A DNA stretch of 64,000 nt, taken from contig JAJCTO010000011.1 of assembly GCA_046563655.1 (NCBI GenBank), forward strand, positions 496,001 through 560,000. The letters are read 5' to 3'. The DNA is from Yuukianura sp. NJ FZ-2021. Taxonomy: Eukaryota. A program made the translations under genes and the position numbers. Shown piece by piece: positions 6,462 through 64,000 of the stretch. The notes under the pieces were generated by a model that saw only the letters and a program-made list of their open reading frames with translations, did no database searches and had not been told where the DNA came from. How positions within the stretch are numbered: the first letter of the stretch is position 1; each line of letters starts with the position of its first letter.

Positions 6462-6462
6462 T

Positions 6463-7181: not shown

Positions 7182-7227
7182 TTACGAAACACTGTAATAA
7201 ATCATCAGTCGTGTTCAAGTTGTCAAC

Positions 7228-9367: not shown

Positions 9368-9368
9368 A

Positions 9369-13547: not shown

Positions 13548-14431
13548 ATGTAAAATAAATTTAACCTTTTGAGGCTTGAAAAGAAAATTTGCATTTTGTT
13601 GCTGAGACGATATTAATCTTCCATAAAAAACCGATGCATTATGAAGTGATTTGGATGGAATAGCGGATGTTGGATTTTTGTATTTTTATTATAAAACGTT
13701 AATACTTTCCATTATTTACATTTAATTGATTATTTTTAATTAGAAATCGCAAAGTGCAGACCATGCTGCTTGGAATACAGAATTGAAGTGAAGAGGGGAA
13801 TTCCTCTGCTCATCTTCTTCGAAAACCACACTTTTTTCACACTTAAAGCTATACCTATAGCTAACACCTTTCTCCGACACTTTAAATTTGGCGCTTTCCT
13901 GTTGAGAAGCGTCTCAAATGCCAAAACACCGCCCTCCATTGAATGACTCTGTCATTCAATTTTGCACAAATAGAAAAAAAAAGAAAATGATGACCAATTT
14001 TGGAATTGCACACAAATGAAAAAATTGAAGGGTGCTCTGATGCTACTGGATTCGGTGGCTGAAGGTGGACGAAGCCTTCTTCCAATTGCTCAGGCTGGAA
14101 TTTGCCGTTTACTGGACCCTACCAGTAGACCAGAACACAAAAGGTCACACACATTGACACACATTCCAGAATTGGTTCACCTTACGTTCTAGTAATTACT
14201 TTACTCGAACGGAGGGTGTTTTAGCAAATGATTTTACCCCTAATTTTAAATTTGTGGAAAGAGATAAGTATTTAAACTAATTCTAAACCCAACACCTATG
14301 TTTTGAATGCATCAAAGAGATACTTAATTTCTAAGATTTTAAACTTAACTTTAACCCAAAAAATTTAAAGTTATGAAATAAATAAATATTTTTGAATTTA
14401 ACACTATTCACACAAGTTCCCTAGACTTACG

Positions 14432-31408: not shown

Positions 31409-31428
31409 CTAAATTTAAAAAAAAAACG

Positions 31429-31812
31429 TCAATCAGACCTTAGTTGAAAAATATTTTCAACAACACTGGTTTCAAAAAACCACTTGAAGATCCTCAAACT
31501 AGACAAATGTCCCTATTTTTGTAGTCTGTCTCCATAGCGTCAAATTAAAATTGCTATCTTGGCACAATTCCGTTCCTCAGGATTCAATCAGACCTTAGTT
31601 GAAAAATATTTTCAACAACACTGGTTTCAAAAAACCACTTGAAGATCCTCAAACTAGACAAATGTCCCTATTTTTGTAGTCTGTCTCCATAGCGTCAAAT
31701 TAAAATTGCTATCTTGGCACAATTCCGTTCCTCAGGATTCAATCAGACCTTAGTTGAAAAATATTTTCAACAACACTGGTTTCAAAAAACCACTTGAAGA
31801 TCCTCAAACTAG
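31429..31812 (-). repeat. Satellite B, ~2.5 monomers in inverted orientation
   Basis: Reverse complement of the 155-bp consensus; switches strand at a shared TAG (31810-31812). Confidence 0.95.
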
Positions 31813-34800
31813 CAATTTTAATTTGACGCTATGGAGACAGACTACAAAAATAGGGACATTTGTCTAGTTTGAGGATCTTCAAGTGGTTTTTTGAAACCAG
31901 TGTTGTTGAAAATATTTTTCAACTAAGGTCTGATTGAATCCTGAGGAACGGAATTGTGCCAAGATAGCAATTTTAATTTGACGCTATGGAGACAGACTAC
32001 AAAAATAGGGACATTTGTCTAGTTTGAGGATCTTCAAGTGGTTTTTCGAAACCAGTGTTGTTGAAAATATTTTTCAACTAAGGTCTGATTGAATCCTGAG
32101 GAACGGAATTGTGCCAAGATAGCAATTTTAATTTGACGCTATGGAGACAGACTACAAAAATAGGGACATTTGTCTAGTTTGAGGATCTTCAAGTGGTTTT
32201 TTGAAACCAGTGTTGAAAATATTTTTCAACTAAGGTCTGATTGAATCCTGAGGAACGGAATTGTGCCAAGATAGCAATTTTAATTTGACGCTATGGAGAC
32301 AGACTACAAAAATAGGGACATTTGTCTAGTTTGAGGATCTTCAAGTGGTTTTTTGAAACCAGTGTTGTTGAAAATATTTTTCAACTAAGGTCTGATTGAA
32401 TCCTGAGGAACGGAATTGTGCCAAAATAGCAATTTTAATTTGACGCTATGGAGCCAGACTACAAAAATAGGGACATTTGTCTAGTTTGAGGATCTTCAAG
32501 TGGTTTTTTGAAACCAGTGTTGTTGAAAATATTTTACAACTAAGGTCTGAAATTCAATCATGAGGAACGGAATTGTGCCAAGATAGCAATTTTAATTTGA
32601 CGCTATGGAGACAGACTACAAAAATAGGGACATTTGTCTAGTTTGAGGATCTTCAAGTGGTTTTTTGAAACCAGTGTTGTTGAAAATATTTTTCAACTAA
32701 GGTCTGATTGAATCCTGAGGAACGGAATTGTGCCAAGATAGCAATTTTAATTTGACGCTATGGAGACAGACTACAAAAATAGGGACATTTGTCTAGTTTG
32801 AGGATCTTCAAGTGGTTTTTTGAAACCAGTGTTGTTGAAAATATTTTTCAACTACGGTCTGATTGAATCCTGAGGAACGGAATTGTGCCAAGATAGCAAT
32901 TTTAATTTGACGCTATGGAGACAGACTACAAAAATAGGGACATTTGTCTAGTTTGAGGATCTTCAAGTGGTTTTTTGAAACCAGTGTTAAAAATATTTTT
33001 CAACTAAGGTCTGATTGAATCCTGAGGAACGGAATTGTGCCAAGATAGCAATTTTAATTTGACGCTATGGAGACAGACTACAAAAATAGGGACATTTGTC
33101 TAGTTTGAGGATCTTAAAGTGGTTTTTTGAAACCAGTGTTGTTGAAAATATTTTTCAACTAAGGTCTGATTGAATCCTGAGGAACGGAATTGTGCCAAGA
33201 TAGAAATTTTAATTCGACGCTATGGAGACAGACTACAAAAATAGGGACATTTGTCTGGTTTGAGGATCTTCAAGTGGTTTTTTGAAACCAGTGTTGTTGA
33301 AAATATTTTTCAACTAAGGTCTGATTGAATCCTGAGGTACGGAATTGTGCCAAGATAGCAATTTTAATTTGACGCTATGGAGACAGACTACAAAAATAGG
33401 GACATTTGTCTAGTTTGAGGATCTTCAAGTGGTTTTTTGAAACCAGTGTTGAAAATATTTTTCAACTAAGGTCTGATTGAATCCTGAGGAACGAAATTGT
33501 GCCAAGATAGCGATTCTAATTTGACGCTATGGAGACAGACTACAAAAATAGGGACATTTGTCTAGTTTGAGGATCTTCAAGTGGTTTTTTGAAACCAGTG
33601 TTGTTGAAAATATTTTTCAACTAAGGTCTGATTGAATCCTGAGGAACGGAATTGTGCCAAGATAGCAATTTTAATTTGACGCTATGGAGACAGACTACAA
33701 AAATAGGGACATTTGTCTAGTTTGAGGATCTTCAAGTGGTTTTTTGAAACCAGTGTTGTTGAAAATATTTTTCAACTAAGGTCTGAAACTCAATCATGAG
33801 GAACGGAATTGTACCAAGATAGCAATTTTAATTTGACGCTATGGAGACAGACTACAAAAATAATGACTTTTGTCTAGTTTGAGGATCTTCAAGTGGTTTT
33901 TTGAAACCAGTGTTGTTGAAAATATTTTTCAACTAAGGTCTGAAACTCAATCATGAGGAACGGAATTGTGCCAAGATAGCAATTTTAATTTGACGCTATG
34001 GAGACAGACTACAAAAATAATGACTTTTGTCTAGTTTGAGGATCTTCAAGTGGTTTTTTGAAACCAGTGTTGTTGAAAATATTTTTCAACTAAGGTCTGA
34101 TTGAATCCTGAGGAACGGAATTGTGCCAAGATAGCAATTTTAATTTGACGCTATGGAGACAGACTACAAAAATAGGGACATTTGTCTAGTTTGAGGATCT
34201 TCAAGTGGTTTTTTGAAACCAGTGTTGTTGAAAATATTTTTCAACTAAGGTCTGATTGAATCCTGAGGAACGGAATTGTGCCAAGATAGCAATTTTAATT
34301 TGACGCTATGGAGACAGACTACAAAAATAGGGACATTTGTCTAGTTTGAGGATCTTCAAGTGGTTTTTTGAAACCAGTGTTGTTGAAAATATTTTTCAAC
34401 TAAGGTCTGATTGAATCCTGAGGAACGGAATTGTGCCAAGATAGCAATTTTAATTTGACGCTATGGAGACAGACTACAAAAATAGGGACATTTGTCTAGT
34501 TTGAGGATCTTCAAGTGGTTTTTTGAAACCAGTGTTGTTGAAAATATTTTTCAACTAAGGTCTGAAACTCAATCATGAGGAACGGAATTGTACCAAGATA
34601 GCAATTTTAATTTGACGCTATGGAGACAGACTACAAAAATAATGACTTTTGTCTAGTTTGAGGATCTTCAAGTGGTTTTTTGAAACCAGTGTTGTTGAAA
34701 ATATTTTTCAACTAAGGTCTGAAACTCAATCATGAGGAACGGAATTGTGCCAAGATAGCAATTTTAATTTGACGCTATGGAGACAGACTACAAAAATAAT

Positions 34801-37800
34801 GACTTTTGTCTAGTTTGAGGATCTTCAAGTGGTTTTTTGAAACCAGTGTTGTTGAAAATATTTTTCAACTAAGGTCTGATTGAATCCTGAGGAACGGAAT
34901 TGTGCCAAGATAGCAATTTTAATTTGACGCTATGGAGACAGACTACAAAAATAGGGACATTTGTCTAGTTTGAGGATCTTCAAGTGGTTTTTTGAAACCA
35001 GTGTTGTTGAAAATATTTTTCAACTAAGGTCTGATTGAATCCTGAGGAACGGAATTGTGCCAAGATAGCAATTTTAATTTGACGCTATGGAGACAGACTA
35101 CAAAAATAGGGACATTTGTCTAGTTTGAGGATCTTCAAGTGGTTTTTCGAAACCAGTGTTGTTGAAAATATTTTTCAACTAAGGTCTGATTGAATACTGA
35201 GGAACGGAATTGTGCCAAGATAGCAATTTTAATTTGACGCTATGGAGACAGACTACAAAAATAGGGACATTTGTCTAGTTTGAGGATCTTCAAGTGGTTT
35301 TTTGAAACCAGTGTTGTTGAAAATATTTTTCAACTAAGGTCTGATTGAATCCTGAGGAACGGAATTGTGCCAAGATAGCAATTTTAATTTGACGCTATGG
35401 AGACAGACTACAAAAATAGGGACATTTGTCTAGTTTGAGGATCTTCAAGTGGTTTTTTGAAACCAGTGTTGTTGAAAATATTTTTCAACTAAGGTCTGAT
35501 TGAATCCTGAGGAACGGAATTGTGCCAAGATAGCAATTTTAATTTGACGCTATGGAGACAGACTACAAAAATAGGGACATTTGTCTAGTTTGAGGATCTT
35601 CAAGTGGTTTTTTGAAACCAGTGTTGTTGAAAATATTTTTCAACTAAGGTCTGATTGAATCCTGAGGAACGGAATTGTGCCAAGATAGCAATTTTAATTT
35701 GACGCTATGGAGACAGACTACAAAAATAGGGACATTTGTCTAGTTTGAGGATCTTCAAGTGGTTTTTTGAAACCAGTGTTGAAAATATTTTTCAACTAAG
35801 GTCTGATTGAATCCTGAGGAACGGAATTGTGCCAAGATAGCAATTTTAATTTGACGCTATGGAGACAGACTACAAAAATAGGGACATTTGTCTAGTTTGA
35901 GGATCTTCAAGTGGTATTTTGAAACCAGTGTTGTTGAAAATATTTTTCAACTAAGGTCTGATTGAATCCTGAGGAACGGAATTGTGCCAAGATAGCAATT
36001 TTAATTTGACGCTATGGAGACAGACTACAAAAATAGGGACATTTGTCTAGTTTGAGGATCTTCAAGTGGTTTTTTGAAACCAGTGTTGTTGAAAATATTT
36101 TTCAACTAAGGTCTGATTGAATCCTGAGGAACGGAATTGTGCCAAGATAGCAATTTTAATTTGACGCTATGGAGACAGACTACAAAAATAGGGACATTTG
36201 TCTAGTTTGAGGATCTTCAAGTGGTTTTTCGAAACCAGTGTTGTTGAAAATATTTTTCAACTAAGGTCTGATTGAATCCTGAGGAACGGAATTGTGCCAA
36301 GATAGCAATTTTAATTTGACGCTATGGAGACAGACTACAAAAATAGGGACATTTGTCTAGTTTGAGGATCTTCAAGTGGTTTTTTGAAACCAGTGTTGTT
36401 GAAAATATTTTTCAACTAAGGTCTGATTGAATCCTGAGGAACGGAATTGTGCCAAGATAGCAATTTTAATTTGACGCTATGGAGACAGACTACAAAAATA
36501 GGGACATTTGTCTAGTTTGAGGATCTTCAAGTGGTTTTTTGAAACCAGTGTTGTTGAAAATATTTTTCAACTAAGGTCTGATTGAATCCTGAGGAACGGA
36601 ATTGTGCCAAGATAGCAATTTTAATTTGACGCTATGGAGACAGACTACAAAAATAGGGACATTTGTCTAGTTTGAGGATCTTCAAGTGGTTTTTTGAAAC
36701 CAGTGTTGTTGAAAATATTTTTCAACTAAGGTCTGATTGAATCCTGAGGAACGGAATTGTGCCAAGATAGCAATTTTAATTTGACGCTATGGAGACAGAC
36801 TACAAAAATAGGGACATTTGTCTAGTTTGAGGATCTTCAAGTGGTTTTTTGAAACCAGTGTTGTTGAAAATATTTTTCAACTAAGGTCTGATTGAATCCT
36901 GAGGAACGGAATTGTGCCAAGATAGCAATTTTAATTTGACGCTATGGAGACAGACTACAAAAATAGGGACATTTGTCTAGTTTGAGGATCTTCAAGTGGT
37001 TTTTTGAAACCAGTGTTGTTGAAAATATTTTTCAACTAAGGTCTGATTGAATCCTGAGGAACGGAATTGTGCCAAGATAGCAATTTTAATTTGACGCTAT
37101 GGAGACAGACTACAAAAATAGGGACATTTGTCTAGTTTGAGGATCTTCAAGTGGTTTTTTGAAACCAGTGTTGTTGAAAATATTTTTCAACTAAGGTCTG
37201 ATTGAATCCTGAGGAACGGAATTGTGCCAAGATAGCAATTTTAATTTGACGCTATGGAGACAGACTACAAAAATAGGGACATTTGTCTAGTTTGAGGATC
37301 TTCAAGTGGTTTTTCGAAACCAGTGTTGTTGAAAATATTTTTCAACTACGGTCTGATTGAATACTGAGGAACGGAATTGTGCCAAGATAGCAATTTTAAT
37401 TTGACGCTATGGAGACAGACTACAAAAATAGGGACATTTGTATAGTTTGAGGATCTTCAAGTGGTTTTTTGAAACCAGTGTTGTTGAAAATATTTTTCAA
37501 CTAAGGTCTGATTGAATCCTGAGGAACGGAATTGTGCCAAGATAGCAATATTAATTTGACGCTATGGAGAAAGACTACAAAAATAGGGACATTTGTCTAG
37601 TTTGAGGATCTTAAAGTGGTTTTTTGAAACCAGTGTTGTTGAAAATATTTTTCAACTAAGGTCTGATTGAATCCTGAGGAACGGAATTGTGCCAAGATAG
37701 CAATTTTAATTTGACGCTATGGAGACAGACTACAAAAATAGTGACATTTGTCTAGTTTGAGGATCTTCAAGTGGTTTTTTGAAACCAGTGTTGTTGAAAA

Positions 37801-39166
37801 TATTTTTCAACTAAGGTCTGATTGAATCCTGAGGAACGGAATTGTGCCAAGATAGCAATTTTAATTTGACGCTATGGAGACAGACTACAAAAATAGGGAC
37901 ATTTGTCTAGTTTGAGGATCTTCAAGTGGTTTTTTGAAACCAGTGTTGTTGAAAATATTTTTCAACTAAGGTCTGATTGAATCCTGAGGAACGGAATTGT
38001 GCCAAGATAGCAATTTTAATTTGACGCTATGGAGACAGACTACAAAAATAGGGACATTTGTCTAGTTTGAGGATCTTCAAGTGGTTTTTTGAAACCAGTG
38101 TTGTTGAAAATATTTTTCAACTAAGGTCTGATTGAATCCTGAGGAACGGAATTGTGCCAAGATAGCAATTTTAATTTGACGCTATGGAGACAGACTACAA
38201 AAATAGGGACATTTGTCTAGTTTGAGGATCTTCAAGTGGTTTTTTGAAACCAGTGTTGTTGAAAATATTTTTCAACTAAGGTCTGATTGAATCCTGAGGA
38301 ACGGAATTGTGCCAAGATAGCAATTTTAATTTGACGCTATGGAGACAGACTACAAAAATAGGGACATTTGTCTAGTTTGAGGATCTTCAAGTGGTTTTTT
38401 GAAACCAGTGTTGTTGAAAATATTTTTCAACTAAGGTCTGAAATTCAATCCTGAGGAACGGAATTGTGCCAAGATAGCAATTTTAATTTGACGCTATGGA
38501 GACAGACTACAAAAATAGGGACATTTGTCTAGTTTGAGGATCTTCAAGTGGTTTTTTGAAACCAGTGTTGTTGAAAATATTTTTCAACTAAGGTCTGATT
38601 GAATCCTGAGGAACGGAATTGTGCCAAGATAGCAATTTTAATTTGACGCTATGGAGACAGACTACAAAAATAGGGACATTTGTCTAGTTTGAGGATCTTC
38701 AAGTGGTTTTTTGAAACCAGTATTGAAAATATTTTTCAACTAAGGTCTGATTGAATCCTGAGGAACGGAATTGTGCCAAGATAGCAATTTTAATTTGACG
38801 CTATGGAGACAGACTACAAAAATAGGGACATTTGTCTAGTTTGAGGATCTTAAAGTGGTTTTTTGAAACCAGTGTTGTTGAAAATATTTTTCAACTAAGG
38901 TCTGATTGAATCCTGAGGAACGGAATTGTGCCAAGATAGCAATTTTAATTTGACGCTATGGAGACAGACTACAAAAATAGGGACATTTGTCTGGTTTGAG
39001 GATCTTCAAGTGGTTTTTTGAAACCAGTGTTGTTGAAAATATTTTTCAACTAAGGTCTGATTGAATCCTGAGGAACGGAATTGTGCCAAGATAGCAATTT
39101 TAATTTGACGCTATGGAGACAGACTACAAAAATAGTGACATTTGTCTAGTTTGAGGATCTTCAAGT
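31810..39166 (+). repeat. Satellite B, 155-bp monomer, left block (~47 copies)
   Basis: 155-bp period (36541 to 38401 = 12 units); 152-bp and 157-bp variants present. Confidence 0.98.
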
Positions 39167-42100
39167 TTTTATTTAACATAACAGAACTGAAAAAACTTAC
39201 ACCTGCCAGAGGCAGGTTGAGGTATTTAAAGACGTATTGAAAAAATTTTTAAATCATATAAATTTCGTAGAGTTCTTTTCCTGACGGTAGGGTACCCAAT
39301 ATAGAAGTGGCATTTCCTCTTTGGATGGCAAGGCTAATTCGTTGAAAGAGGAAGGATGTTGCTCGATTGTCACCGGTGGCTTCTGAGAGGCGATGTCCAA
39401 TGGAATTGAGTAGACGTCGGCCTTCTTCCCCGTAGACTCCAGTTGTCTCGACTGCAATGATGGAAACAATAAATCGATGATCAAGGTCACGGTAGAGGTC
39501 ATGCTTATGGATTTCAGCAACGGCAGCAGGATGACCGAGAACGGAGGATGATGTTGCTAGGTAGGACGCAGCGAAGGTGTCACGGCAGGTAAAGTCCCAG
39601 GCAAGGGAGCGACCGGACTTCCAAGGAATGAGAGTGATTCCATCAGGTCGCTTTCCATCAGTTCTGGAACAGCCGGAAGGTTCTTTCATACATGGTATTC
39701 CACTTGTTTGAAGCGATCTTGAAATGATGTCGTTTACAGCGGCGTGTCTTGAATGTCTGCCTGCACTTCTCGTACAGCTTAGGCCGTGCAAGCCGTTGCT
39801 TGATACCAAAGTTCCGCATGGACATCGATGAGGTTGGCAAATTTCGGTGCCTAGCCGCAATCCACAAGAAATTCTGAAGGTTTCGTCTGAAAGGAGCGTC
39901 CCAAGAGGCGAAGATGGAATAGCCAGTAGCCAATCTCCAGAATGAGGGGCGGCTGAAGCAAGCAGTCGTGCTTTATCGATGGGAGTGGTTGATTTCTCCA
40001 GCAGGTTGGAGTAGATTTTTTCGAAGATCTGAATTTCCCAGAGTTTTTGTATTTTTCCATCTTGCGGCGTTATGAAGTCCAAATTTGACCAACTGAGGGA
40101 AGCAAGGTCCACTGACTTATCGAAAGGCGAAAGATGTGGTGGAAGGAAGGTAGAAATTAGTTCGGCACAACTATAGACTGAAGCCAAAAAGGAAAATGTA
40201 GCACAGTCCGTCGCGTGGCGAATGCCTAAACCCCCTTGATTCACAGGCAAAGAAGACTGCAACCATGCTTCTTCATTCAAACTTGAGTTCAGGATGGATT
40301 CCAACACGGTGCGTAAAGCTGAGTCGTAAGCTTGTAGGAGGTCAGGTTCGAGGAATGCAGGAGAACATCTGACAAAGTACAGAAGTCTTGGTGTTGAAAT
40401 TGATGCCCTAAGTAGAAAAAACGCTACATGGGCTGGCAGGCAAGAGAGTCTTGATGAAAGTCTGTTGAAGTCATCAGTTTTGGATTTGAGGATACGACGT
40501 GAAGATTCTTTGAACAGAGGCGCTCCCAACAGTTCCGATTGTCCTTTCTCGGGGAAGACGAACTCCGGCGAAATCGATTTGAAGGAGTTGGTGATTAACT
40601 TTTGTTCAGACTGGTCGGCAGACAGAATGATTACTTCGCATTTCTTCATGTTCAAATGCAGACCAAAAGAACTGGCACTAGATTGGATGGTTATGAGGTT
40701 TTTGAGCACAACATCTGGAGAGTCGCCAATTGTCGCGTCGTCTAAGTACCACGAATTGAATTCGGTCGTTAGGGATGCGGCTAGTGGGTGAATTGTTAGT
40801 GCGAAAAGTGCAGGACCCAATGGGCAACCTTGTTGGACTCCTAACTTGGACTTGATGCAGCTAGAGTTGTAGAAGAGGTCTGATTCGAACGAGTATGCTT
40901 GAGAGACGAAATTGAAGATTTCTGGTAGATGAGTTTTCACAGCATTCAGCATTTGATCTCTTCTGATAAGATTAAAGGCGTTTCGAAAATCCAACTTCAG
41001 AAGAACCTTGGGAGAGGCGTGATTGGCGTTGCAGAAGATCCTGGCAGCATGAGCCACGGCTTCGGCTCCGTTCTTGACGCCGACGCCTGTTTGAATTGGA
41101 TGTAGGATGGACGAAATGGCGTTCATTGAGCGCGACAGGATTAGCTTCGACACTAGGCGTCTCCAGGTGAGGCCGATTGCAATTGGCCGGATTCCACCTT
41201 TTTCTTCTGAATCGCAATAAGGGAAGCACCGAAGAACACAGGCCGGATGTCGACAGGAAGAGAATCATTAGCGATGAGATTGCACAGCTTGGAAATTGAA
41301 GATAGCAGCGCTAAACCTGCATCTCCTGATGATTTTGATGTAAGTTCTTTTAGTATTTGAGGACGAAGCGAGTCAAGGCCACCGGAAGAACCATTTGGGA
41401 ATGAAGAGATAGATTTCAGGATGTCACTTTCTTCGAAAATGATGTTTGTTGGAGAAGGTGGGTCTGGCATGACGGTTGGTAGAGGATGAGCCGGGTGTAA
41501 CTCGTGGAGGGCTTCAATAGTGGAGGAGTCATCCGATGCCAAACAGTCATCAGAACAGAGAACTCGAATGGATCCACGAATGTCGCCGTCCGCTAGTTTA
41601 GATTGAACGAGTTTGGAACAATTCCAGTGTTGGGATGATGGCAAGTAGCGGGGGAGATTATGAGTTGATGGTGAGTTGAAGAACGTAGACGATGAGGAGG
41701 AGAAGCGGGTGACATTTGACTTCACCCATTTGGTCAGATTTGGAACAGGGTCTTCTTTTTTCGGAAGATGTAGTGCAGCATATGGAAAAAAGAAAAGCCT
41801 TTCCCACGATTCCGAGGAGTTTTCGGTAACGACTTGTTCTATGACGGCGGAGAGTGTGGATGCCACAACTTGTCTAGCTCCCTTGGGGATGTGTTTGAGA
41901 ATTTGAATTGATTTTTTCAAAAGTGCGAGTCGTGAACCAATAGTAAGATCCGGAGATGATGATTGAGCAGTGGGGTCCAAAAATGTAATCCCAAGATACG
42001 ATTGTTCAATGTGTTTCCGTCCGCTCGCCCTTGTTTTGGTGATATTTGGAAATATCTTCAAAAGTTTTGAACCCATGGTTGTGTCAGCTAGTGGTTTGAT

Positions 42101-42835
42101 ATGAATTGATGCACAAAAGCGGTGGTATTTGTCTTTAAATTCCTGCTTTTTCATCAAGCCACCGGAGACAAGGCGGATATTGTTTGAGATCCAGTCGTCA
42201 CTTAGTTTGGAAATTACAGATTTGCTTCGATTCTTGGAAGTAGAAGTACGATTGGAGAATGTCTGATGTCTGGCTGAATCGTCAACTCCCAATCCGCAGT
42301 CATCTAATGATGACCCGATTCCGGGAATCTCCACGATTGTAATGTCACGGATCGATGTTTCTGGGTCGTTTTGAACGACATTGGGATCAGACGAACAGTC
42401 AAAAGTAAAGTTGGTTTGAGAGTCTTGATTCGGATGAATGTTTGAACTGAAGTTTTCCATTCTCTCACTTGTTGTTGTTGTCAAGGTTATGCGAATGATA
42501 ATTGTGAATTCGGAATTTTTCGAAGAAAAATTAGTGAAGGCCCAATGTTGTCCAGGAGATAAGCAATTGATGATTTGTTTGTTTGAGTTATGATGTCTTG
42601 AGAGCGAATTTTGGAGTCAGAATTTCAGGACTTTGGTTGACGAAAGTGGGCCAGTTGACAAGTGTCCGGTTGTAAAATGCATGTAGAAGCACATCAAAGG
42701 ATGCGCGACAATGAGATGAACAATCTGATATGAAAATGATGGACTTTTGTACTAAATTCACTCAGAAAACAATCAAAAACTCGGGAGCGAATTTTTGCGT
42801 GTCAACAGATTGTTTGTTTTATTTCGTGGTTAATA
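39167..42835 (-). mobile_element. CRE-like RLE non-LTR retrotransposon (3.67 kb) inserted in satellite B
   Basis: TSD ATCTTCAAGT at 39157-39166 and 42836-42845 (last T ambiguous with the A tail); 3' end AAATAAAA; RT plus C-terminal restriction-like endonuclease. Confidence 0.92.
39249..42484 (-). pseudogene. Single ORF (winged-helix / RT / zinc knuckle / PD-D endonuclease) with a 1-bp frameshift at ~41200
   Basis: GSSGGLDSLRP, GGIRPIAIG..RRLVSK (after the shift), QTGVG, LDFRNAFN, GVQQGCPLGP, WYLDD, GGLGI, CPC..H..C..RH, RPDG..WDFT. Confidence 0.9.
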
Positions 42836-45800
42836 ATCTTCAAGTGGTTTTTTGAAACCAGTGTTGAAAATATTTTTCAACTAAGGTCTCGTTGAATCCT
42901 GAGGAACGGAATTGTGCCAAGATAGCAATTTTAATTTGACGCTATGGAGACAGACTACAAAAATAGGGACATTTGTCTAGTTTGAGGATCTTCAAGTGGT
43001 TTTTCGAAACCAGTGTTGTTGAAAATATTTTTCAACTACGGTCTGATTGAATACTGAGGAACGGAATTGTGCCAAGATAGCAATTTTAATTTGACGCTAT
43101 GGAGACAGACTACAAAAATAGGGACATTTGTCTGGTTTGAGGATCTTCAAGTGGTTTTTTGAAACCAGTGTTGTTGAACATATTTTTCAACTAAGGTCTG
43201 ATTGAATCCTGAGGAACGGAATTGTGCCAAGATAGCAATTTTAATTTGACGCTATGGAGACAGACTACAAAAATAGGGACATTTGTCTAGTTTGAGGATC
43301 TTCAAGTGGTTTTTTGAAACCAGTGTTGTTGAAAATATTTTTCAACTAAGGTCTGAAATTGAATCCTGAGGAACGGAATTGTGCCAAGATAGCAATTTTA
43401 ATTTGACGCTATGGAGACAGACTACAAAAATAGGGACATTTGTCTAGTTTGAGGATCTTCAAGTGGTTTTTTGAAACCAGTGTTGTTGAAAATATTTTTC
43501 AACTACGGTCTGATTGAATCCTGAGGAACGGAATTGTGCCAAGATAGCAATTTTAATTTGACGCTATGGAGACAGACTACAAAAATAGGGACATTTGTCT
43601 AGTTTGAGGATCTTCAAGTGGTTTTTGAAACCAGTGTTGTTGAAAATATTTTTCAACTAAGGTCTGATTGAATCCTGAGGAACGGAATTGTGCCAAGATA
43701 GCAATTTTAATTTGACGCTATGGAGACAGACTACAAAAATAGGGACATTTGTCTAGTTTGAGGATCTTCAAGTGGTTTTTTGAAACCAGTGTTGTTGAAA
43801 ATATTTTTCAACTAAGGTCTGATTGAATCCTGAGGAACGGAATTGTGCCAAGATAGCAATTTTAATTTGACGCTATGGAGACAGACTACAAAAATAGGGA
43901 CATTTGTCTAGTTTGAGGATCTTCAAGTGGTTTTTTGAAACCAGTGTTGAAAATATTTTTCAACTAAGGTCTGATTGAATCCTGAGGAACGGAATTGTGC
44001 CAAGATAGCAATTTTAATTTGACGCTATGGAGACAGACTACAAAAATAGGGACATTTGTCTGGTTTGAGGATCTTCAAGTGGTTTTTTGAAACCAGTGTT
44101 GTTGAAAATATTTTTCAACTAAGGTCTGATTGAATCCTGAGGAACGGAATTGTGCCAAGATAGCAATTTTAATTTGACGCTATGGAGACAGACTACAAAA
44201 ATAGGGACATTTGTCTAGTTTGAGGATCTTCAAGTGGTTTTTTGAAACCAGTGTTGTTGAAAATATTTTTCAACTAAGGTCTGATTGAATCCTGAGGAAC
44301 GGAATTGTGCCAAGATAGCAATTTTAATTTGACGCTATGGAGACAGACTACAAAAATAGGGACATTTGTCTAGTTTGAGGATCTTCAAGTGGTTTTTCGA
44401 AACCAGTGTTGTTGAAAATATTTTTCAACTAAGGTCTGATTGAATACTGAGGAACGGAATTGTGCCAAGATAGCAATTTTAATTTGACGCTATGGAGACA
44501 GACTACAAAAATAGGGACATTTGTCTGGTTTGAGGATCTTCAAGTGGTTTTTTGAAACCAGTGTTGTTGAAAATATTTTTCAACTAAGGTCTGATTGAAT
44601 CCTGAGGAACGGAATTGTGCCAAGATAGCAATTTTAATTTGACGCTATGGAGACAGACTACAAAAATAGGGACATTTGTCTAGTTTGAGGATCTTCAAGT
44701 GGTTTTTTGAAACCAGTGTTGTTGAAAATATTTTTCAACTAAGGTCTGATTGAATCCTGAGGAACGGAATTGTGCCAAGATAGCAATTTTAATTTGACGC
44801 TATGGAGACAGACTACAAAAATAGGGACATTTGTCTAGTTTGAGGATCTTCAAGTGGTTTTTTGAAACCAGTGTTGTTGAAAATATTTTTCAACTAAGGT
44901 CTGATTGAATCCTGAGGAACGGAATTGTGCCAAGATAGCAATTTTAATTTGACGCTATGGAGACAGACTACAAAAATAGGGACATTTGTCTAGTTTGAGG
45001 ATCTTCAAGTGGTTTTTTGAAACCAGTGTTGTTGAAAATATTTTTCAACTAAGGTCTGATTGAATCCTGAGGAACGGAATTGTGCCAAGATAGCAATTTT
45101 AATTTGACGCTATGGAGACAGACTACAAAAATAGGGACATTTGTCTAGTTTGAGGATCTTCAAGTGGTTTTTTGAAACCAGTGTTGTTGAAAATATTTTT
45201 CAACTAAGGTCTGATTGAATCCTGAGGAACGGAATTGTGCCAAGATAGCAATTTTAATTTGACGCTATGGAGACAGACTACAAAAATAGGGACATTTGTC
45301 TAGTTTGAGGATCTTCAAGTGGTTTTTTGAAACCAGTGTTGGAAAATATTTTTCAACTAAGGTCTGATTGAATCCTGAGGAACGGAATTGTGCCAAGATA
45401 GCAATTTTAATTTGACGCTATGGAGACAGACTACAAAAATAGGGACATTTGTCTAGTTTGAGGATCTTCAAGTGGTTTTTTGAAACCAGTGTTGTTGAAA
45501 ATATTTTTCAACTAAGGTCTGATTGAATCCTGAGGAACGGAATTGTGCCAAGATAGCAATTTTAATTTGACGCTACGGAGACAGACTACAAAAATAGGGA
45601 CATTTGTCTAGTTTGAGGATCTTCAAGTGGTTTTTTGAAACCAGTGTTGAAAATATTTTTCAACTAAGGTCTGATTGAATCCTGAGGAACGGAATTGTGC
45701 CAAGATAGCAATTTTAATTTGACGCTATGGAGACAGACTACAAAAATAGGGACATTTGTCTGGTTTGAGGATCTTCAAGTGGTTTTTTGAAACCAGTGTT

Positions 45801-48800
45801 GTTGAAAATATTTTTCAACTAAGGTCTGATTGAATCCTGAGGAACGGAATTGTGCCAAGATAGCAATTTTAATTTGACGCTATGGAGACAGACTACAAAA
45901 ATAGGGACATTTGTCTAGTTTGAGGATCTTCAAGTGGTTTTTGAAACCAGTGTTGAAAATATTTTTCAACTAAGGTCTGATTGAATCCTGAGGAACGGAA
46001 TTGTGCCAAGATAGCAATTTTAATTTGACGCTATGGAGACAGACTACAAAAATAGGGACATTTGTCTAGTTTGAGGATCTTCAAGTGGTTTTTTGAAACC
46101 AGTGTTGTTGAAAATATTTTTCAACTAAGGTCTGAAATTCAATCCTGAGGAACGGAATTGTACCAAGATAGCAATTTTAATTTGACGCTATGGAGACAGA
46201 CTACAAAAATAGGGACATTTGTCTAGTTTGAGGATCTTCAAGTGGTTTTTTAAAACCAGTGTTGTTGAAAATATTTTTCAACTAAGGTCTGATTGAATCC
46301 TGAGGAACGGAATTGTGCCAAGATAGCAATTTTAATTTGACGCTATGGAGACAGACTACAAAAATAGGGACATTTGTCTAGTTTGAGGATCTTCAAGTGG
46401 TTTTTTGAAACCAGTGTTGTTGAAAATATTTTTCAACTAAGGTCTGATTGAATCCTGAGGAACGGAATTGTGCCAAGATAGCAATTTTAATTTGACGCTA
46501 TGGAGACAGACTACAAAAATAGGGACATTTGTCTGGTTTGAGGATCTTCAAGTGGTTTTTTGAAACCAGTGTTGTTGAAAATATTTTTCAACTAAGGTCT
46601 GATTGAATCCTGAGGAACGGAATTGTGCCAAGATAGCAATTTTAATTTGACGCTATGGAGACAGACTACAAAAATAGGGACATTTGTCTAGTTTGAGGAT
46701 CTTCAAGTGGTTTTTTGAAACCAGTATTGTTGAAAATATTATTCAACTAAGGTCTGATTGAATCCTGAGGAACGGAATTGTGCCAAGATAGCAATTTTAA
46801 TTTGACGCTATGGAGACAGACTACAAAAATAGGGACATTTGTCTAGTTTGAGGATCTTCAAGTGGTTTTTTGAAACCAGTGTTGTTGAAAATATTTTTCA
46901 ACTAAGGTCTGATTGAATCCTGAGGAACGGAATTGTGCCAAGATAGCAATTTTAATTTGACGCTATGGAGACAGACTACAAAAATAGGGACATTTGTCTA
47001 GTTTGAGGATCTTCAAGTGGTTTTTTGAAACCAGTGTTGTTGAAAATATTTTTCAACTAAGGTCTGATTGAATCCTGAGGAACGGAATTGTGCCAAGATA
47101 GCAATTTTAATTTGACGCTATGGAGACAGACTACAAAAATAGGGACATTTGTCTAGTTTGAGGATCTTCAAGTGGTTTTTTGAAACCAGTGTTGTTGAAA
47201 ATATTTTTCAACTAAGGTCTGATTGAATCCTGAGGAACGGAATTGTGCCAAGATAGCAATTTTAATTTGACGCTATGGAGACAGACTACAAAAATAGGGA
47301 CATTTGTCTAGTTTGAGGATCTTCAAGTGGTTTTTTGAAACCAGTGTTGTTGAAAATATTTTTCAACTAAGGTCTGATTGAATCCTGAGGAACGGAATTG
47401 TGCCAAGATAGCAATTTTAATTTGACGCTATGGAGACAGACTACAAAAATAGGGACATTTGTCTAGTTTGAGGATCTTCAAGTGGTTTTTTGAAACCAGT
47501 GTTGTTGAAAATATTTTTCAACTAAGGTCTGATTGAATCCTGAGGAACGGAATTGTGCCAAGATAGCAATTTTAATTTGACGCTATGGAGACAGACTACA
47601 AAAATAGGGACATTTGTCTAGTTTGAGGATCTTCAAGTGGTTTTTTGAAACCAGTGTTGTTGAAAATATTTTTCAACTAAGGTCTGATTGAATCCTGAGG
47701 AACGGAATTGTGCCAAGATAGCAATTTTAATTTGACGCTATGGAGACAGACTACAAAAATAGGGACATTTGTCTAGTTTGAGGATCTTCAAGTGGTTTTT
47801 TGAAACCAGTGTTGTTGAAAATATTTTTCAACTAAGGTCTGATTGAATCCTGAGGAACGGAATTGTGCCAAGATAGCAATTTTAATTTGACGCTATGGAG
47901 ACAGACTACAAAAATAGGGACATTTGTCTAGTTTGAGGATCTTCAAGTGGTTTTTTGAAACCAGTGTTGTTGAAAATATTTTTCAACTAAGGTCTGATTG
48001 AATCCTGAGGAACGGAATTGTGCCAAGATAGCAATTTTAATTTGACGCTATGGAGACAGACTACAAAAATAGGGACATTTGTCTAGTTTGAGGATCTTCA
48101 AGTGGTTTTTTGAAACCAGTGTTGTTGAAAATATTTTTCAACTAAGGTCTGATTGAATCCTGAGGAACGGAATTGTGCCAAGATAGCAATTTTAATTTGA
48201 CGCTATGGAGACAGACTACAAAAATAGGGACATTTGTCTAGTTTGAGGATCTTCAAGTGGTTTTTTGAAACCAGTGTTGTTGAAAATATTTTTCAACTAA
48301 GGTCTGATTGAATCCTGAGGAACGGAATTGTGCCAAGATAGCAATTTTAATTTGACGCTATGGAGACAGACTACAAAAATAGGGACATTTGTCTAGTTTG
48401 AGGATCTTCAAGTGGTTTTTTGAAACCAGTGTTGTTGAAAATATTTTTCAACTAAGGTCTGATTGAATCCTGAGGAACGGAATTGTGCCAAGATAGCAAT
48501 TTTAATTTGACGCTATGGAGACAGACTACAAAAATAGGGACATTTGTCTAGTTTGAGGATCTTCAAGTGGTTTTTTGAAACCAGTGTTGTTGAAAATATT
48601 TTTCAACTAAGGTCTGATTGAATCCTGAGGAACGGAATTGTGCCAAGATAGCAATTTTAATTTGACGCTATGGAGACAGACTACAAAAACAGGGACATTT
48701 GTCTAGTTTGAGGATCTTCAAGTGGTTTTTTGAAACCAGTGTTGAAAATATTTTTCAACTAAGGTCTCGTTGAATCCTGAGGAACGGAATTGTGCCAAGA

Positions 48801-51800
48801 TAGCAATTTTAATTTGACGCTATGGAGACAGACTACAAAAATAGGGACATTTGTCTAGTTTGAGGATCTTCAAGTGGTTTTTCGAAACCAGTGTTGTTGA
48901 AAATATTTTTCAACTACGGTCTGATTGAATACTGAGGAACGGAATTGTTCCAAGATAGCAATTTTAATTTGACGCTATGGAGACAGACTACAAAAATAGG
49001 GACATTTGTCTAGTTTGAGGATCTTCAAGTGGTTTTTTGAAACCAGTGTTGTTGAAAATATTTTACAACTAAGGTCTGAAATTCAATCATGAGGAACGGA
49101 ATTGTGCCAAGATAGCAATTTTAATTTGACGCTATGGAGACAGACTACAAAAATAGGGACATTTGTCTAGTTTGAGGATCTTCAAGTGGTTTTTTGAAAC
49201 CAGTGTTGTTGAAAATATTTTTCAACTACGGTCTGATTGAATCCTGAGGAACGGAATTGTGCCAAGATAGCAATTTTAATTTGACGCTATGGAGACAGAC
49301 TACAAAAATAGGGACATTTGTCTAGTTTGAGGATCTTCAAGTGGTTTTTTGAAACCAGTGTTGAAAATATTTTTCAACTAAGGTCTGATTGAATCCTGAG
49401 GAACGGAATTGTGCCAAGATAGCAATTTTAATTTGACGCTATGGAGACAGACTACAAAAATAGGGACATTTGTCTAGTTTGAGGATCTTCAAGTGGTTTT
49501 TTGAAACCAGTGTTGTTGAAAATATTTTTCAACTAAGGTCTGATTGAATCCTGAGGAACGGAATTGTGCCAAGATAGCAATTTTAATTTGACGCTATGGA
49601 GACAGACTACAAAAATAGGGACATTTGTCTAGTTTGAGGATCTTCAAGTGGTTTTTTGAAACCAGTGTTGAAAATATTTTTCAACTAAGGTCTGATTGAA
49701 TCCTGAGGAACGGAATTGTGCCAAGATAGCAATTTTAATTTGACGCTATGGAGACAGACTACAAAAATAGGGACATTTGTCTGGTTTGAGGATCTTCAAG
49801 TGGTTTTTTGAAACCAGTGTTGTTGAAAATATTTTTCAACTAAGGTCTGATTGAATCCTGAGGAACGGAATTGTGCCAAGATAGCAATTTTAATTTGACG
49901 CTATGGAGACAGACTACAAAAATAGGGACATTTGTCTAGTTTGAGGATCTTCAAGTGGTTTTTTGAAACCAGTGTTGAAAATATTTTTCAACTAAGGTCT
50001 GATTGAATCCTGAGGAACGGAATTGTGCCAAGATAGCAATTTTAATTTGACGCTATGGAGACAGACTACAAAAATAGGGACATTTGTCTAGTTTGAGGAT
50101 CTTCAAGTGGTTTTTTGAAACCAGTGTTGTTGAAAATATTTTTCAACTAAGGTCTGAAATTCAATCATAAGCAACGGAATTGTACCAAGATAGCAATTTT
50201 AATTTGACGCTATGGAGACAGACTACAAAAATAGGGACATTTGTCTGGTTTGAGGATCTTCAAGTGGTTTTTTAAAACCAGTGTTGTTGAAAATATTTTT
50301 CAACTAAGGTCTGATTGAATCCTGAGGAACGGAATTGTGCCAAGATAGCAATTTTAATTTGACGCTATGGAGACAGACTACAAAAATAGGGACATTTGTC
50401 TAGTTTGAGGATCTTCAAGTGGTTTTTTGAAACCAGTGTTGAAAATATTTTTCAACTAAGGTGTGATTGAATCCTGAGGAACGGAATTGGGCCAAGATAG
50501 CAATTTTAATTTGACGCTATGGAGACAGACTACAAAAATAGGGACATTTGTCTGGTTTGAGGATCTTCAAGTGGTTTTTTGAAACCAGTGTTGTTGAAAA
50601 TATTTTTCAACTAAGGTCTGATTGAATCCTGAGGAACGGAATTGTGCCAAGATAGCAATTTTAATTTGACGCTATGGAGACAGACTACAAAAATAGGGAC
50701 ATTTGTCTAGTTTGAGGATCTTCAAGTGGTTTTTGAAACCAGTGTTGTTGAAAATATTTTTCAACTAAGGTCTGATTGAATCCTGAGGAACGGAATTGTG
50801 CCAAGATAGCAATTTTAATTTGACGCTATGGAGACAGACTACAAAAATAGGGACATTTGTCTAGTTTGAGGATCTTCAAGTGGTTTTTTGAAACCAGTGT
50901 TGTTGAAAATATTTTTCAACTAAGGTCTGATTGAATCCTGAGGAACGGAATTGTGCCAAGATAGCAATTTTAATTTGACGCTATGGAGACAGACTACAAA
51001 AATAGGGACATTTGTCTAGTTTGAGGATCTTCAAGTGGTTTTTTGAAACCAGTGTTGTTGAAAATATTTTTCAACTAAGGTCTGATTGAATCCTGAGGAA
51101 CGGAATTGTGCCAAGATAGCAATTTTAATTTGACGCTATGGAGACAGACTACAAAAATAGGGACATTTGTCTAGTTTGAGGATCTTCAAGTGGTTTTTTG
51201 AAACCAGTGTTGTTGAAAATATTTTTCAACTAAGGTCTGATTGAATCCTGAGGAACGGAATTGTGCCAAGATAGCAATTTTAATTTGACGCTATGGAGAC
51301 AGACTACAAAAATAGGGACATTTGTCTAGTTTGAGGATCTTCAAGTGGTTTTTTGAAACCAGTGTTGTTGAAAATATTTTTCAACTAAGGTCTGATTGAA
51401 TCCTGAGGAACGGAATTGTGCCAAGATAGCAATTTTAATTTGACGCTATGGAGACAGACTACAAAAATAGGGACATTTGTCTAGTTTGAGGATCTTCAAG
51501 TGGTTTTTTGAAACCAGTGTTGTTGAAAATATTTTTCAACTAAGGTCTGATTGAATCCTGAGGAACGGAATTGTGCCAAGATAGCAATTTTAATTTGACG
51601 CTATGGAGACAGACTACAAAAATAGGGACATTTGTCTAGTTTGAGGATCTTCAAGTGGTTTTTTGAAACCAGTGTTGTTGAAAATATTTTTCAACTAAGG
51701 TCTGATTGAATCCTGAGGAACGGAATTGTGCCAAGATAGCAATTTTAATTTGACGCTATGGAGACAGACTACAAAAATAGGGACATTTGTCTAGTTTGAG

Positions 51801-54800
51801 GATCTTCAAGTGGTTTTTTGAAACCAGTGTTGTTGAAAATATTTTTCAACTAAGGTCTGATTGAATCCTGAGGAACGGAATTGTGCCAAGATAGCAATTT
51901 TAATTTGACGCTATGGAGACAGACTACAAAAATAGGGACATTTGTCTAGTTTGAGGATCTTCAAGTGGTTTTTTGAAACCAGTGTTGTTGAAAATATTTT
52001 TCAACTAAGGTCTGATTGAATCCTGAGGAACGGAATTGTGCCAAGATAGCAATTTTAATTTGACGCTATGGAGACAGACTACAAAAATAGGGACATTTGT
52101 CTAGTTTGAGGATCTTCAAGTGGTTTTTTGAAACCAGTGTTGTTGAAAATATTTTTCAACTAAGGTCTGATTGAATCCTGAGGAACGGAATTGTGCCAAG
52201 ATAGCAATTTTAATTTGACGCTATGGAGACAGACTACAAAAATAGGGACATTTGTCTAGTTTGAGGATCTTCAAGTGGTTTTTTGAAACCAGTGTTGTTG
52301 AAAATATTTTTCAACTAAGGTCTGATTGAATCCTGAGGAACGGAATTGTGCCAAGATAGCAATTTTAATTTGACGCTATGGAGACAGACTACAAAAATAG
52401 GGACATTTGTCTAGTTTGAGGATCTTCAAGTGGTTTTTTGAAACCAGTGTTGTTGAAAATATTTTTCAACTAAGGTCTGATTGAATCCTGAGGAACGGAA
52501 TTGTGCCAAGATAGCAATTTTAATTTGACGCTATGGAGACAGACTACAAAAATAGGGACATTTGTCTAGTTTGAGGATCTTCAAGTGGTTTTTTGAAACC
52601 AGTGTTGTTGAAAATATTTTTCAACTAAGGTCTGATTGAATCCTGAGGAACGGAATTGTGCCAAGATAGCAATTTTAATTTGACGCTATGGAGACAGACT
52701 ACAAAAATAGGGACATTTGTCTAGTTTGAGGATCTTCAAGTGGTTTTTTAAAACCAGTGTTGTTGAAAATATTTTTCAACTAAGGTCTGATTGAATCCTG
52801 AGGAACGGAATTGTGCCAAGATAGCAATTTTAATTTGACGCTATGGAGACAGACTACAAAAATAGGGACATTTGTCTAGTTTGAGGATCTTCAAGTGGTT
52901 TTTTGAAACCAGTGTTGTTGAAAATATTTTTCAACTAAGGTCTGATTGAATCCTGAGGAACGGAATTGTGCCAAGATAGCAATTTTAATTTGACGCTATG
53001 GAGACAGACTACAAAAATAGGGACATTTGTCTAGTTTGAGGATCTTCAAGTGGTTTTTTGAAACCAGTGTTGTTGAAAATATTTTTCAACTAAGGTCTGA
53101 TTGAATCCTGAGGAACGGAATTGTGCCAAGATAGCAATTTTAATTTGACGCTATGGAGACAGACTACAAAAATAGGGACATTTGTCTAGTTTGAGGATCT
53201 TCAAGTGGTTTTTTGAAACCAGTGTTGTTGAAAATATTTTTCAACTAAGGTCTGATTGAATCCTGAGGAACGGAATTGTGCCAAGATAGCAATTTTAATT
53301 TGACGCTATGGAGACAGACTACAAAAATAGGGACATTTGTCTAGTTTGAGGATCTTCAAGTGGTTTTTTGAAACCAGTGTTGTTGAAAATATTTTTCAAC
53401 TAAGGTCTGATTGAATCCTGAGGAACGGAATTGTGCCAAGATAGCAATTTTAATTTGACGCTATGGAGACAGACTACAAAAATAGGGACATTTGTCTAGT
53501 TTGAGGATCTTCAAGTGGTTTTTTGAAACCAGTGTTGTTGAAAATATTTTTCAACTAAGGTCTGATTGAATCCTGAGGAACGGAATTGTGCCAAGATAGC
53601 AATTTTAATTTGACGCTATGGAGACAGACTACAAAAATAGGGACATTTGTCTAGTTTGAGGATCTTCAAGTGGTTTTTTGAAACCAGTGTTGTTGAAAAT
53701 ATTTTTCAACTAAGGTCTGATTGAATCCTGAGGAACGGAATTGTGCCAAGATAGCAATTTTAATTTGACGCTATGGAGACAGACTACAAAAATAGGGACA
53801 TTTGTCTAGTTTGAGGATCTTCAAGTGGTTTTTTGAAACCAGTGTTGTTGAAAATATTTTTCAACTAAGGTCTGATTGAATCCTGAGGAACGGAATTGTG
53901 CCAAGATAGCAATTTTAATTTGACGCTATGGAGACAGACTACAAAAATAGGGACATTTGTCTAGTTTGAGGATCTTCAAGTGGTTTTTTGAAACCAGTGT
54001 TGAAAATATTTTTCAACTAAGGTCTGATTGAATCCTGAGGAACGGAATTGTGCCAAGATAGCAATTTTAATTTGACGCTATGGAGACAGACTACAAAAAT
54101 AGGGACATTTGTCTAGTTTGAGGATCTTCAAGTGGTTTTTTGAAACCAGTGTTGTTGAAAATATTTTTCAACTAAGGTCTGATTGAATCCTGAGGAACGG
54201 AATTGTGCCAAGATAGCAATTTTAATTTGACGCTATGGAGACAGACTACAAAAATAGGGACATTTGTCTAGTTTGAGGATCTTCAAGTGGTTTTTTGAAA
54301 CCAGTGTTGTTGAAAATATTTTTCAACTAAGGTCTGATTGAATCCTGAGGAACGGAATTGTGCCAAGATAGCAATTTTAATTTGACGCTATGGAGACAGA
54401 CTACAAAAATAGGGACATTTGTCTAGTTTGAGGATCTTCAAGTGGTTTTTTGAAACCAGTGTTGTTGAAAATATTTTTCAACTAAGGTCTGATTGAATCC
54501 TGAGGAACGGAATTGTGCCAAGATAGCAATTTTAATTTGACGCTATGGAGACAGACTACAAAAATAGGGACATTTGTCTAGTTTGAGGATCTTCAAGTGG
54601 TTTTTTGAAACCAGTGTTGTTGAAAATATTTTTCAACTAAGGTCTGATTGAATCCTGAGGAACGGAATTGTGCCAAGATAGCAATTTTAATTTGACGCTA
54701 TGGAGACAGACTACAAAAATAGGGACATTTGTCTAGTTTGAGGATCTTCAAGTGGTTTTTTGAAACCAGTGTTGTTGAAAATATTTTTCAACTAAGGTCT

Positions 54801-63800: not shown

Positions 63801-64000
63801 AGTTTGAGGATCTTCAAGTGGTTTTTTGAAACCAGTGTTGTTGAAAATATTTTTCAACTAAGGTCTGATTGAATCCTGAGGAACGGAATTGTGCCAAGAT
63901 AGCAATTTTAATTTGACGCTATGGAGACAGACTACAAAAATAGGGACATTTGTCTAGTTTGAGGATCTTCAAGTGGTTTTTTGAAACCAGTGTTGTTGAA
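42836..64000 (+). repeat. Satellite B, 155-bp monomer, right block (~136 copies, runs off the window)
   Basis: Continuous, highly homogeneous tandem array with the same consensus as the left block. Confidence 0.98.

Follow-up and report, generated by a model that had tools for sequence, protein, structure and literature searches.

Among the long interspersed nuclear elements (LINEs) that carry a restriction-like endonuclease (RLE), the CRE, R2, R4 and NeSL clades are mostly target-specific while HERO elements mostly are not, according to the available sections of PMC4640811; these agree with the background given in an earlier sequence-only reading of the DNA described here, that RLE-clade elements are often specific for repeated targets. 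The same sections report a weak preference of YURE elements for U2-derived satellites. Less selective elements are also on record. BLAG elements, which are R2-like and of the same size range as the element treated below (3,215–3,669 bp), are reported in the accessible part of PMC7650587 not to be site-specific, and non-specific R2 families (R2NS) exist and carry DNA-binding heads (PMC5035012, in the part available). The present locus lies in Yuukianura sp. NJ FZ-2021 (GenBank assembly GCA_046563655.1, contig JAJCTO010000011.1, positions 496,001 to 560,000 of the forward strand), in a stretch of 64,000 nucleotides that is called the window here and within which all positions are given. A large array of a 155-bp satellite is interrupted there by a single insert (Table 1) which, the rule of its target choice aside, is a recent copy of an autonomous RLE-bearing retrotransposon of the LINE type, without long terminal repeats (non-LTR) and with an R2-like architecture.

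The insertion is defined by the regularity of the satellite around it. The motif ATCTTCAAGT occurs once per monomer, with 183 forward copies in the window; three more lie in reverse complement where the array begins inverted, and outside the array there is none. The 182 intervals between successive forward copies measure 151–157 bp in 177 cases, 307–310 bp in three, and 73 bp and 3,679 bp in one case each; therefore, there is exactly one interruption, with a duplication of 10 bp and the register kept. The longest interval is made up of the 3,669-bp insert plus 10 bp, after which the monomer picks up again in exact register. The sequence-only reading had placed a retrotransposon at 39157..42845, in exact register and with a clean 10-bp target-site duplication (TSD) inside a homogeneous array. 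The motif positions and intervals bear out these coordinates and the register, and the duplication is found as ATCTTCAAGT on both sides, in an array 99.2% identical to its consensus. Because the array is tandem, the length of the duplication is known only modulo 155. A duplication of 165 bp was rejected, as the 165 bp before and after the insert differ at three places (159/165 identical, one 3-bp gap), and a target deletion of 145 + 155n bp is less parsimonious than a TSD of 10 bp. Self-BLAST of the element against the window returned only its match to itself. Five public sequencing runs in two studies, none listed as RNA, hold the element, and contigs of four of them (X1 to X4) were compared. 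Among the contigs listed, uninterrupted sites are found as joints from 39156 to 42836, which skip 3,679 bp and have ten letters that fit both sides (four in X1, one in X2). The insertion is real and young, and the R2-like element is almost intact.

The element has no terminal repeats, ends in an A-rich 3' tract and is flanked by a TSD, as seen in the sequence and in the self-BLAST of the window, which is the pattern of RLE-bearing non-LTR elements. Its catalytic residues are well kept: across 96 sequences, D129 and D130 of the reverse transcriptase (RT) are invariant, as are D495, D511, K541 and E560 of the RLE domain, and in the CCHC knuckle C435 and H447 are invariant while C437 and C451 are conserved in at least 90%. 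No Pfam endonuclease/exonuclease/phosphatase match, as would mark an endonuclease of the apurinic/apyrimidinic (APE) type, was present at E ≤ 0.1. The earlier assignment to an RLE-clade retrotransposon is thus upheld by RVT_1 with its YLDD motif, by the CCHC knuckle, and by a domain of the PD..D..K type whose superposition on R2 proteins extends as far as the C-terminal end of the latter.

Structure models were made with AlphaFold (AF2) and compared by Foldseek and VIA-align. The model of the 625-aa frame is of high confidence (pLDDT 95, pTM 0.90), and R2 proteins are its top Foldseek matches (E 1.9e-17 to 5.2e-14, over about 670–720 columns). By VIA-align, 554–572 of the 625 residues align with R2 proteins (Z 20.7–23.3), from the RT through the C-terminal end of the endonuclease, the alignment reaching residue 1107 of R2Bm and residue 1121 of Platysternon R2. 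LINE-1 ORF2p is a poorer match to the same model (Z 12.1–16.7). Sequence comparison gives only marginal similarity to R2 proteins of solved structure (phmmer E 0.006). Two features of the R2 clade proper are lacking: the flanks are satellite and not 28S ribosomal DNA (rDNA), and neither a CCHH zinc finger nor a Myb domain was found by Pfam in the N-terminal 435 aa.

What stands in the place of those domains is an RFX-type winged helix. The Pfam family RFX_DNA_binding (PF02257) matches the upstream frame at 28.2 bits (cut-off 27, E 2.9e-6), and the head also matches the RFX5 chain 8zjr_M in sequence (E 6.1e-6). The AF2 model of the 435-aa frame has a pLDDT of 81.6, rising above 90 across the RFX domain, and resembles both 8zjr_M (TM-score 0.87, root-mean-square deviation (rmsd) 1.4) and RFX1 in its X-box complex (1dp7_P; TM-score 0.89, rmsd 1.5), the next matches having E > 0.1. 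At E ≤ 0.1, Pfam gave only RFX_DNA_binding and a weak zf-FCS match in the N-terminal 435 aa. The modelled structure confirms that the head is an RFX-type winged helix, a fold that is predicted to bind DNA in a sequence-specific manner.

The head appears to be the changeable part of this lineage. A total of 2,655 database proteins match the 435-aa frame at E ≤ 0.001, by way of the region before the RT, and for the majority of the top 150 the alignment is confined to roughly aa 165–421; because most of these relatives align only behind the head, the head can be described as a variable module. The closest protein is P0001 from a metagenome (54% identity), and the closest named proteins are those of the springtail Folsomia candida (ca. 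50%). Among the 120 best RT relatives, Pfam flags RFX in six, SAP in six, PHD in six, C2H2 in one and UCH in one. The RFX profile was run on seven relatives, of which six score 29.5–79.6 bits and one, L001, scores 18.9 bits (below the cut-off); in three of these seven a PHD finger is present as well. Other N-terminal modules (SAP, C2H2, PHD, ubiquitin-hydrolase) are joined to the same RT-RLE body in P0043, P0057, P0063, P0065, P0083 and P0091, and in P0030 and P0079. In a FastTree phylogeny of 96 RT-RLE sequences (none dropped, SH-like local support only, midpoint-rooted, database relatives), a single clade of 25 rows (support 98) takes in the element together with every one of the six RFX-flagged proteins, and the SAP-headed proteins group apart in another clade, likewise supported at 98. 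Since the same RT-RLE body carries other heads, and the SAP-headed proteins form a clade of their own, the data suggest head swapping within the lineage.

The flanks of the relatives were inspected for a common target. The closest locus, L001 (55% identity), has a ...AATAAAAA end followed by unique sequence with an inverted repeat, and no tandem repeat lies within 330 bp of it. For 80 metagenome relatives with flanks, Tandem Repeats Finder (TRF) gave no shared target, and Rfam at gathering score, applied to 20 of the 80 loci, gave no match. Pairs of cousins from the same family with 3' ends inside both contigs numbered four in this set, and in all four the 3' flanks are unlike. The 3' tails of cousins are (TAA)n-like or (AAC)n (L059 from 4694; L042 at 3317). 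In L042, a (TAA)n tract at positions 1–53 also adjoins the 5' side, which recalls the microsatellite-associated RLE LINEs.

The coding region of the window copy is broken at one point. The downstream frame is open upstream to 41201, where it reads KGGIRPIAIGLTWRRL..., and the upstream frame reads ...FFGASLIAIQKKKVESG... to a stop. As relatives run through this region in one frame (...GASLTAL.KK.GGIRPIAVG...), the window copy can be taken to be one base short in its A5 run. Contigs of the runs carry one more base here, either an extra T at the frameshift site (785.4 of 785.4 depth in X1, 19 of 19 in X3, 608.3 of 2230 in X2) or an extra C three bases beyond it (54 of 54 in X4, 198 of 2230 in X2), which means that in-frame copies exist. 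Either the break is unique to the window copy, or the assembly has the length of the homopolymer wrong. Outside the frames, scans of the element ends against Rfam at gathering score turned up neither a ribozyme nor any other family (in the 5' untranslated region (UTR), only junk at E > 3), and the fold of the 5' UTR is unremarkable (z −0.44). A small hairpin, CCUGCCUCUGGCAGG, in the 3' UTR has a z of −1.9, with 9 of 200 shuffles folding as well.

The runs also show that the family is multi-copy, because the contigs contain partial-depth variant letters within the element, a variant with a 105-bp internal deletion (in X1 and X2), the two kinds of in-frame allele, and many breaks across the element. 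Run X1 holds 89% of the sampled 31-mers of the element, and a 1,718-nt contig of X1 differs from it by one letter and one gap, the runs containing the element at 99.9% identity. They are also very rich in the satellite. Certain contigs cease to follow the window copy ca. 20 bp short of its 5' end: record 8 of X1 and record 16 of X2 stop at 42815, and an X3 contig (depth 48.5) diverges at 42813 and continues for 787 nt, the letters shown beyond the divergence not being satellite. Summed contig depth climbs toward the 3' end of the element in each of the four runs, a pattern expected from 5' truncation, with the limit that contig depth cannot rank the parts of the element. The family is probably still active in the source organism.

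Table 1. Positions in the window of the element, its parts and the surrounding satellite features
Feature	Position	Strand	Details
Retrotransposon insert	39167..42835	- (sense strand)	3,669 bp between two ATCTTCAAGT copies
Left 10-bp TSD copy, ATCTTCAAGT	39157..39166		last base T39166, putative 3'-OH primer for first-strand cDNA
Right 10-bp TSD copy, ATCTTCAAGT	42836..42845
5' UTR	42461..42835	-	375 nt
Upstream frame	41153..42460	-	435 aa: low-confidence N-terminal tail, RFX winged helix, conserved pre-RT region (PKGAR ... GDIRGSIRVL ...)
RFX-type winged-helix DNA-binding domain (predicted)	41984..42196	-	aa 89-159 of the 435-aa frame
Frame junction	41199..41203	T5 on plus strand (A5 in sense)	one base short of a single frame
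Downstream frame	39249..41201	-	625 aa from first ATG at 41126; RT, thumb/linker, CCHC knuckle, RLE
RT core (Pfam RVT_1)	40626..41081	-	aa 16-167 of the 625-aa frame, E 3.5e-17; YLDD at aa 127-130
CCHC knuckle	39774..39824	-	C435, C437, H447, C451 of the 625-aa frame
RLE domain, PD-(D/E)xK type	39444..39758	-	RPDG with D495, WDFT with D511, K541, E560
3' UTR	39167..39248	-	82 nt, ends ...GUUAAAUAAAA; A-rich end AAATAAAA
155-bp satellite host array	31429..64000	+	ca. 186 monomers, mean 99.2% identity to consensus; continues beyond window end
Inverted array start	31429-31812		first 2.5 monomers in opposite orientation, 100% matches, joined directly to the forward array
19-bp box GGTTTTTTGAAACCAGTGT, dyad GGTTT-N4-AAACC	42846..42864	+	directly beside the putative first-strand nick
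Related 147-bp satellite	11913..13548	+	11.2 copies, insertion-free

The host array spans 32,572 bp, of which 28,893 bp are satellite, and its consensus monomer occurs 96 times in the window without any change. The exact 35-nt context of the target is found 155 times in forward and three times in reverse-complement orientation in the window. A second satellite, with a monomer of 147 bp, is homologous to the first (66% identity over 179 columns). The 19-bp box is identical in the two, with 165 forward copies in the 155-bp array and six in the 147-bp array; because it has been kept between diverged satellites, its sequence hints at a candidate protein-binding site. The box has a dyad but appears unlike the X-box consensus. 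The sequence-only reading took the satellite to be centromere-like; the traits of the array that may bear on this are indirect, namely a 155-bp monomer, 99.2% homogeneity and a flank rich in transposable elements. Each monomer also bears a weak likeness to the 3' half of U4 small nuclear RNA (snRNA; 43564–43659, minus strand; 17.9 bits, E 0.11, gathering score 46), in a stretch that includes an Sm-site-like AUUUUUG. An snRNA origin of the satellite was nevertheless rejected: the match is below threshold, a control region in the 147-bp satellite gave an unrelated match of E 0.12, and the 5' UTR region yielded no match better than E 3.2. As the control matched equally well, the U4 likeness is probably chance. 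No family reached its gathering score in an Rfam scan of the whole window. Apart from mutated motifs, the sole further length anomaly in the array is at 58580–59034, where a partial duplication of 73 bp makes a local unit of 227 bp. The inverted edge of the array is an inversion or palindromic junction, and adjoins a Harbinger-like open reading frame (ORF) with DDE_Tnp_4 (30781–31428).

The anatomy of the element and its junctions is consistent with target-primed reverse transcription (TPRT). The protein would bind the satellite monomer, and its RLE would nick the plus strand of the window after T39166 (AAGT^GG), so that cDNA synthesis may start from the 3'-OH with the ...AAAUAAAA end of the RNA as template. 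The opposite strand would then be cut 10 bp away (GAGG^ATCT as written on the plus strand), and second-strand synthesis would fill the 10-bp stagger to give the duplication.

Taken together, the locus probably records one insertion by an element that has no dedicated satellite target. It would be an opportunistic or weakly selective insertion, kept as satellite heterochromatin tolerates it, and we regard this as somewhat more likely than the work of a satellite specialist. Such a specialist family, which the sequence-only reading raised as a possibility, would recognise the 155-bp monomer, likeliest through the RFX helix on GGTTT-N4-AAACC, nick at the edge of the box, and place most of its copies at one monomer position, with the satellite as a safe harbour like that of R2 in rDNA; we consider this possible but doubtful. 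The unlike flanks in all four cousin pairs weigh against strict site-specificity as a general rule in the wider lineage, as do the BLAG elements reported not to be site-specific. Against a specialist stand the single copy, the lack of any insertion in some 185 equivalent monomers of the window, and the X3 contig that leaves the element at 42813 and runs into letters that are not satellite. DNA-binding heads are also present on non-specific RLE elements (BLAG and R2NS, in the available parts of PMC7650587 and PMC5035012, respectively), the position beside the box was noticed after the fact, and neither the ribozyme scans nor the fold of the leader gave any sign of adaptation to co-transcription with the satellite. 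Other observations favour the specialist and weigh against an opportunistic insertion. The element is the only interruption, and the sole transposable element, in 28.9 kb of satellite, which fits a real preference. The putative nick, AAGT^GG, coincides with the border of the 19-bp box, a sequence shared without a mismatch by two satellites of just 66% identity; this is suggestive if partly post hoc. The exact 35-nt context is abundantly available in the window. Among the 24 loose ends listed (84 more lie outside the listing), none joins the 3' end to non-satellite DNA in X1 to X3. The head is a predicted sequence-specific DNA-binding fold, and head type tracks the RT phylogeny (RFX clade 98, SAP clade 98), as expected if heads set targets; the available sections of PMC4640811, with most RLE clades target-specific and YURE drawn to U2-derived satellites, point the same way. 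Furthermore, an RFX head is absent from all five scanned members of the cousin pairs (L008, L021, L042, L044 and L059; each pair represented by one or more), so these pairs speak for the cousins only and say little about the RFX clade. The data show the anatomy, the duplication and the folds; from these we infer the TPRT steps, the sequence in which the two strands are nicked and the part played by the head. Finally, no contig among the pieces listed for the four runs bridges a junction between element and satellite, and because of this both junctions stand on the window assembly alone.

The missing bridge would also suit an artefact, either a mis-join by the assembler or a target deletion of 145 + 155n bp in the guise of a TSD, as would the fact that the length of a tandem duplication is defined modulo 155. 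However, a chimeric join would not place both junctions at one and the same point of the monomer, with ten overlapping letters that match perfectly and the register kept, the element is in the runs at 99.9% identity, and the 165-bp alternative has been rejected, so an artefact is barely credible. A co-amplified passenger is also improbable, if less so. It would have inserted once and gained copy number in the satellite by unequal crossing-over that duplicates segments of the array, and not by repeated retrotransposition. Homogenisation of the array to 99.2% implies that segmental turnover is active, and amplified fragments could account for the way depth climbs toward the 3' end across the four runs. 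That climb is given equally by 5' truncation, however, and the window holds one copy in 32.6 kb without periodic recurrence. The flanking variant T39136 was tried as a marker tied to the element and rejected, since it is an ordinary minor variant that occurs twice in the window.

A clade of R2-like retrotransposons with RFX heads seems to be absent from print. No paper was found that joins the RFX DNA-binding domain, a retrotransposon and reverse transcriptase, in a search that left most subscription journals outside and is therefore weak; among the matches listed, the only paper with both RFX and a non-LTR retrotransposon is a study of L1 domestication. A more far-reaching proposal, and one that we hold more tentatively still than satellite specialism itself, is that the winged helix of this presumably undescribed clade docks on the conserved 19-bp dyad box, that the element nicks at the very edge of the box, and that the 155-bp satellite is (peri)centromeric. 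The safe harbour would then be a complex satellite and not a multicopy RNA gene, and head swapping (RFX, SAP, PHD, C2H2) would be the way in which the lineage changes its targets. If satellite targeting were true, complex satellites would join rDNA, snRNA and spliced-leader (SL) genes, tRNA genes and microsatellites among the safe harbours of RLE LINEs, and the locus would offer a tractable case of a transposon within candidate centromeric DNA. The RFX head would in that case represent a natural re-programming of the target by exchange of a DNA-binding module on an R2-like engine; the engineering of R2 for site-specific insertion aims at such module swaps (PMC13580325, in the part available).

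The remainder of the window contains other mobile elements. A string of long ORFs on the same strand (52–11227) has the look of a Maverick/Polinton-type element, with a 764-aa ORF (52–2346) that is PolB-like by eye. Pfam places an rve integrase (3969–4964, minus strand) and a weak AAA ATPase (4899–5594) in this region, and assigned no family to five further ORFs, the PolB-like one among them. Two coding regions of BEL/Pao LTR retrotransposons are located at 23373–28699 and 14432–16153. One of them has a Pao peptidase, an RT, an integrase zinc domain, DUF5641 and, at 27398–28699, a gag-like ORF with DUF1759. Their best named relatives are from springtails (Folsomia, Orchesella), at ca. 50% identity. 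With the Folsomia candida proteins that are closest to the R2-like element, this makes the host probably an arthropod, one without proteins of its own in the database.

Several known systems share part of this arrangement. Dong/R4, some HERO elements and Togen are likewise RLE LINEs that live in tandem repeats, in their case simple ones (PMC4640811, available sections). In contrast to these microsatellite-associated elements, the target here is a complex 155-bp monomer, and the 3' end is the fixed sequence AAATAAAA with no simple-repeat tail. BLAG, from Blattella germanica, comprises R2-like arthropod elements with one ORF of 974–1,073 aa, the length range given above, a CCHC knuckle and an RLE, and without Myb; unlike the present element, BLAG heads are CCHH zinc fingers, and each BLAG copy has unique flanks (both as given in the accessible part of PMC7650587). 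Four cores, of 5–6 residues, of the bipartite ‘Blag’ motif between head and RT are absent from the element by exact match. Utopia and YURE, of the NeSL clade, resemble the element as RLE LINEs with variable N-terminal modules, and YURE is the nearest published precedent for an RLE element that prefers a satellite. Their heads differ in being zinc fingers, with a protease or RNase H in some families (available sections of PMC4640811 for all of these points), and the 155-bp satellite, unlike the YURE target, has no significant likeness to snRNA.

The head itself has its counterparts in the cellular RFX factors (RFX1, RFX5), with which it shares the winged-helix fold (rmsd 1.4–1.5 Å over 75–79 columns) and a recognisable likeness in sequence; unlike them, the domain is fused to a retrotransposon polyprotein, and its wing residues differ from those of RFX5. 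For the element as a whole, the closest structural parallel is R2 (R2Bm, R2Tg and Platysternon R2; structures 8gh6, 9nl3, 9nl2 and 8ibw). The element differs from it in having an RFX winged helix where R2 has CCHH zinc fingers and Myb, in having the 155-bp satellite as its target in place of 28S rDNA (no Rfam family reached gathering score in the window), and in that no HDV-like ribozyme was found at its 5' end in Rfam scans. The TSD of the element is 10 bp; R2Bm insertion is accompanied by a small deletion of the target. Like R2, it is a LINE of about 3.5–4 kb, with one coding region that is split in the window copy by a single missing base, in which RT, linker, CCHC knuckle and RLE superpose on those of R2, and, like R2, it resides in tandemly repeated host sequence, where it is likely to have inserted by TPRT with two staggered nicks.

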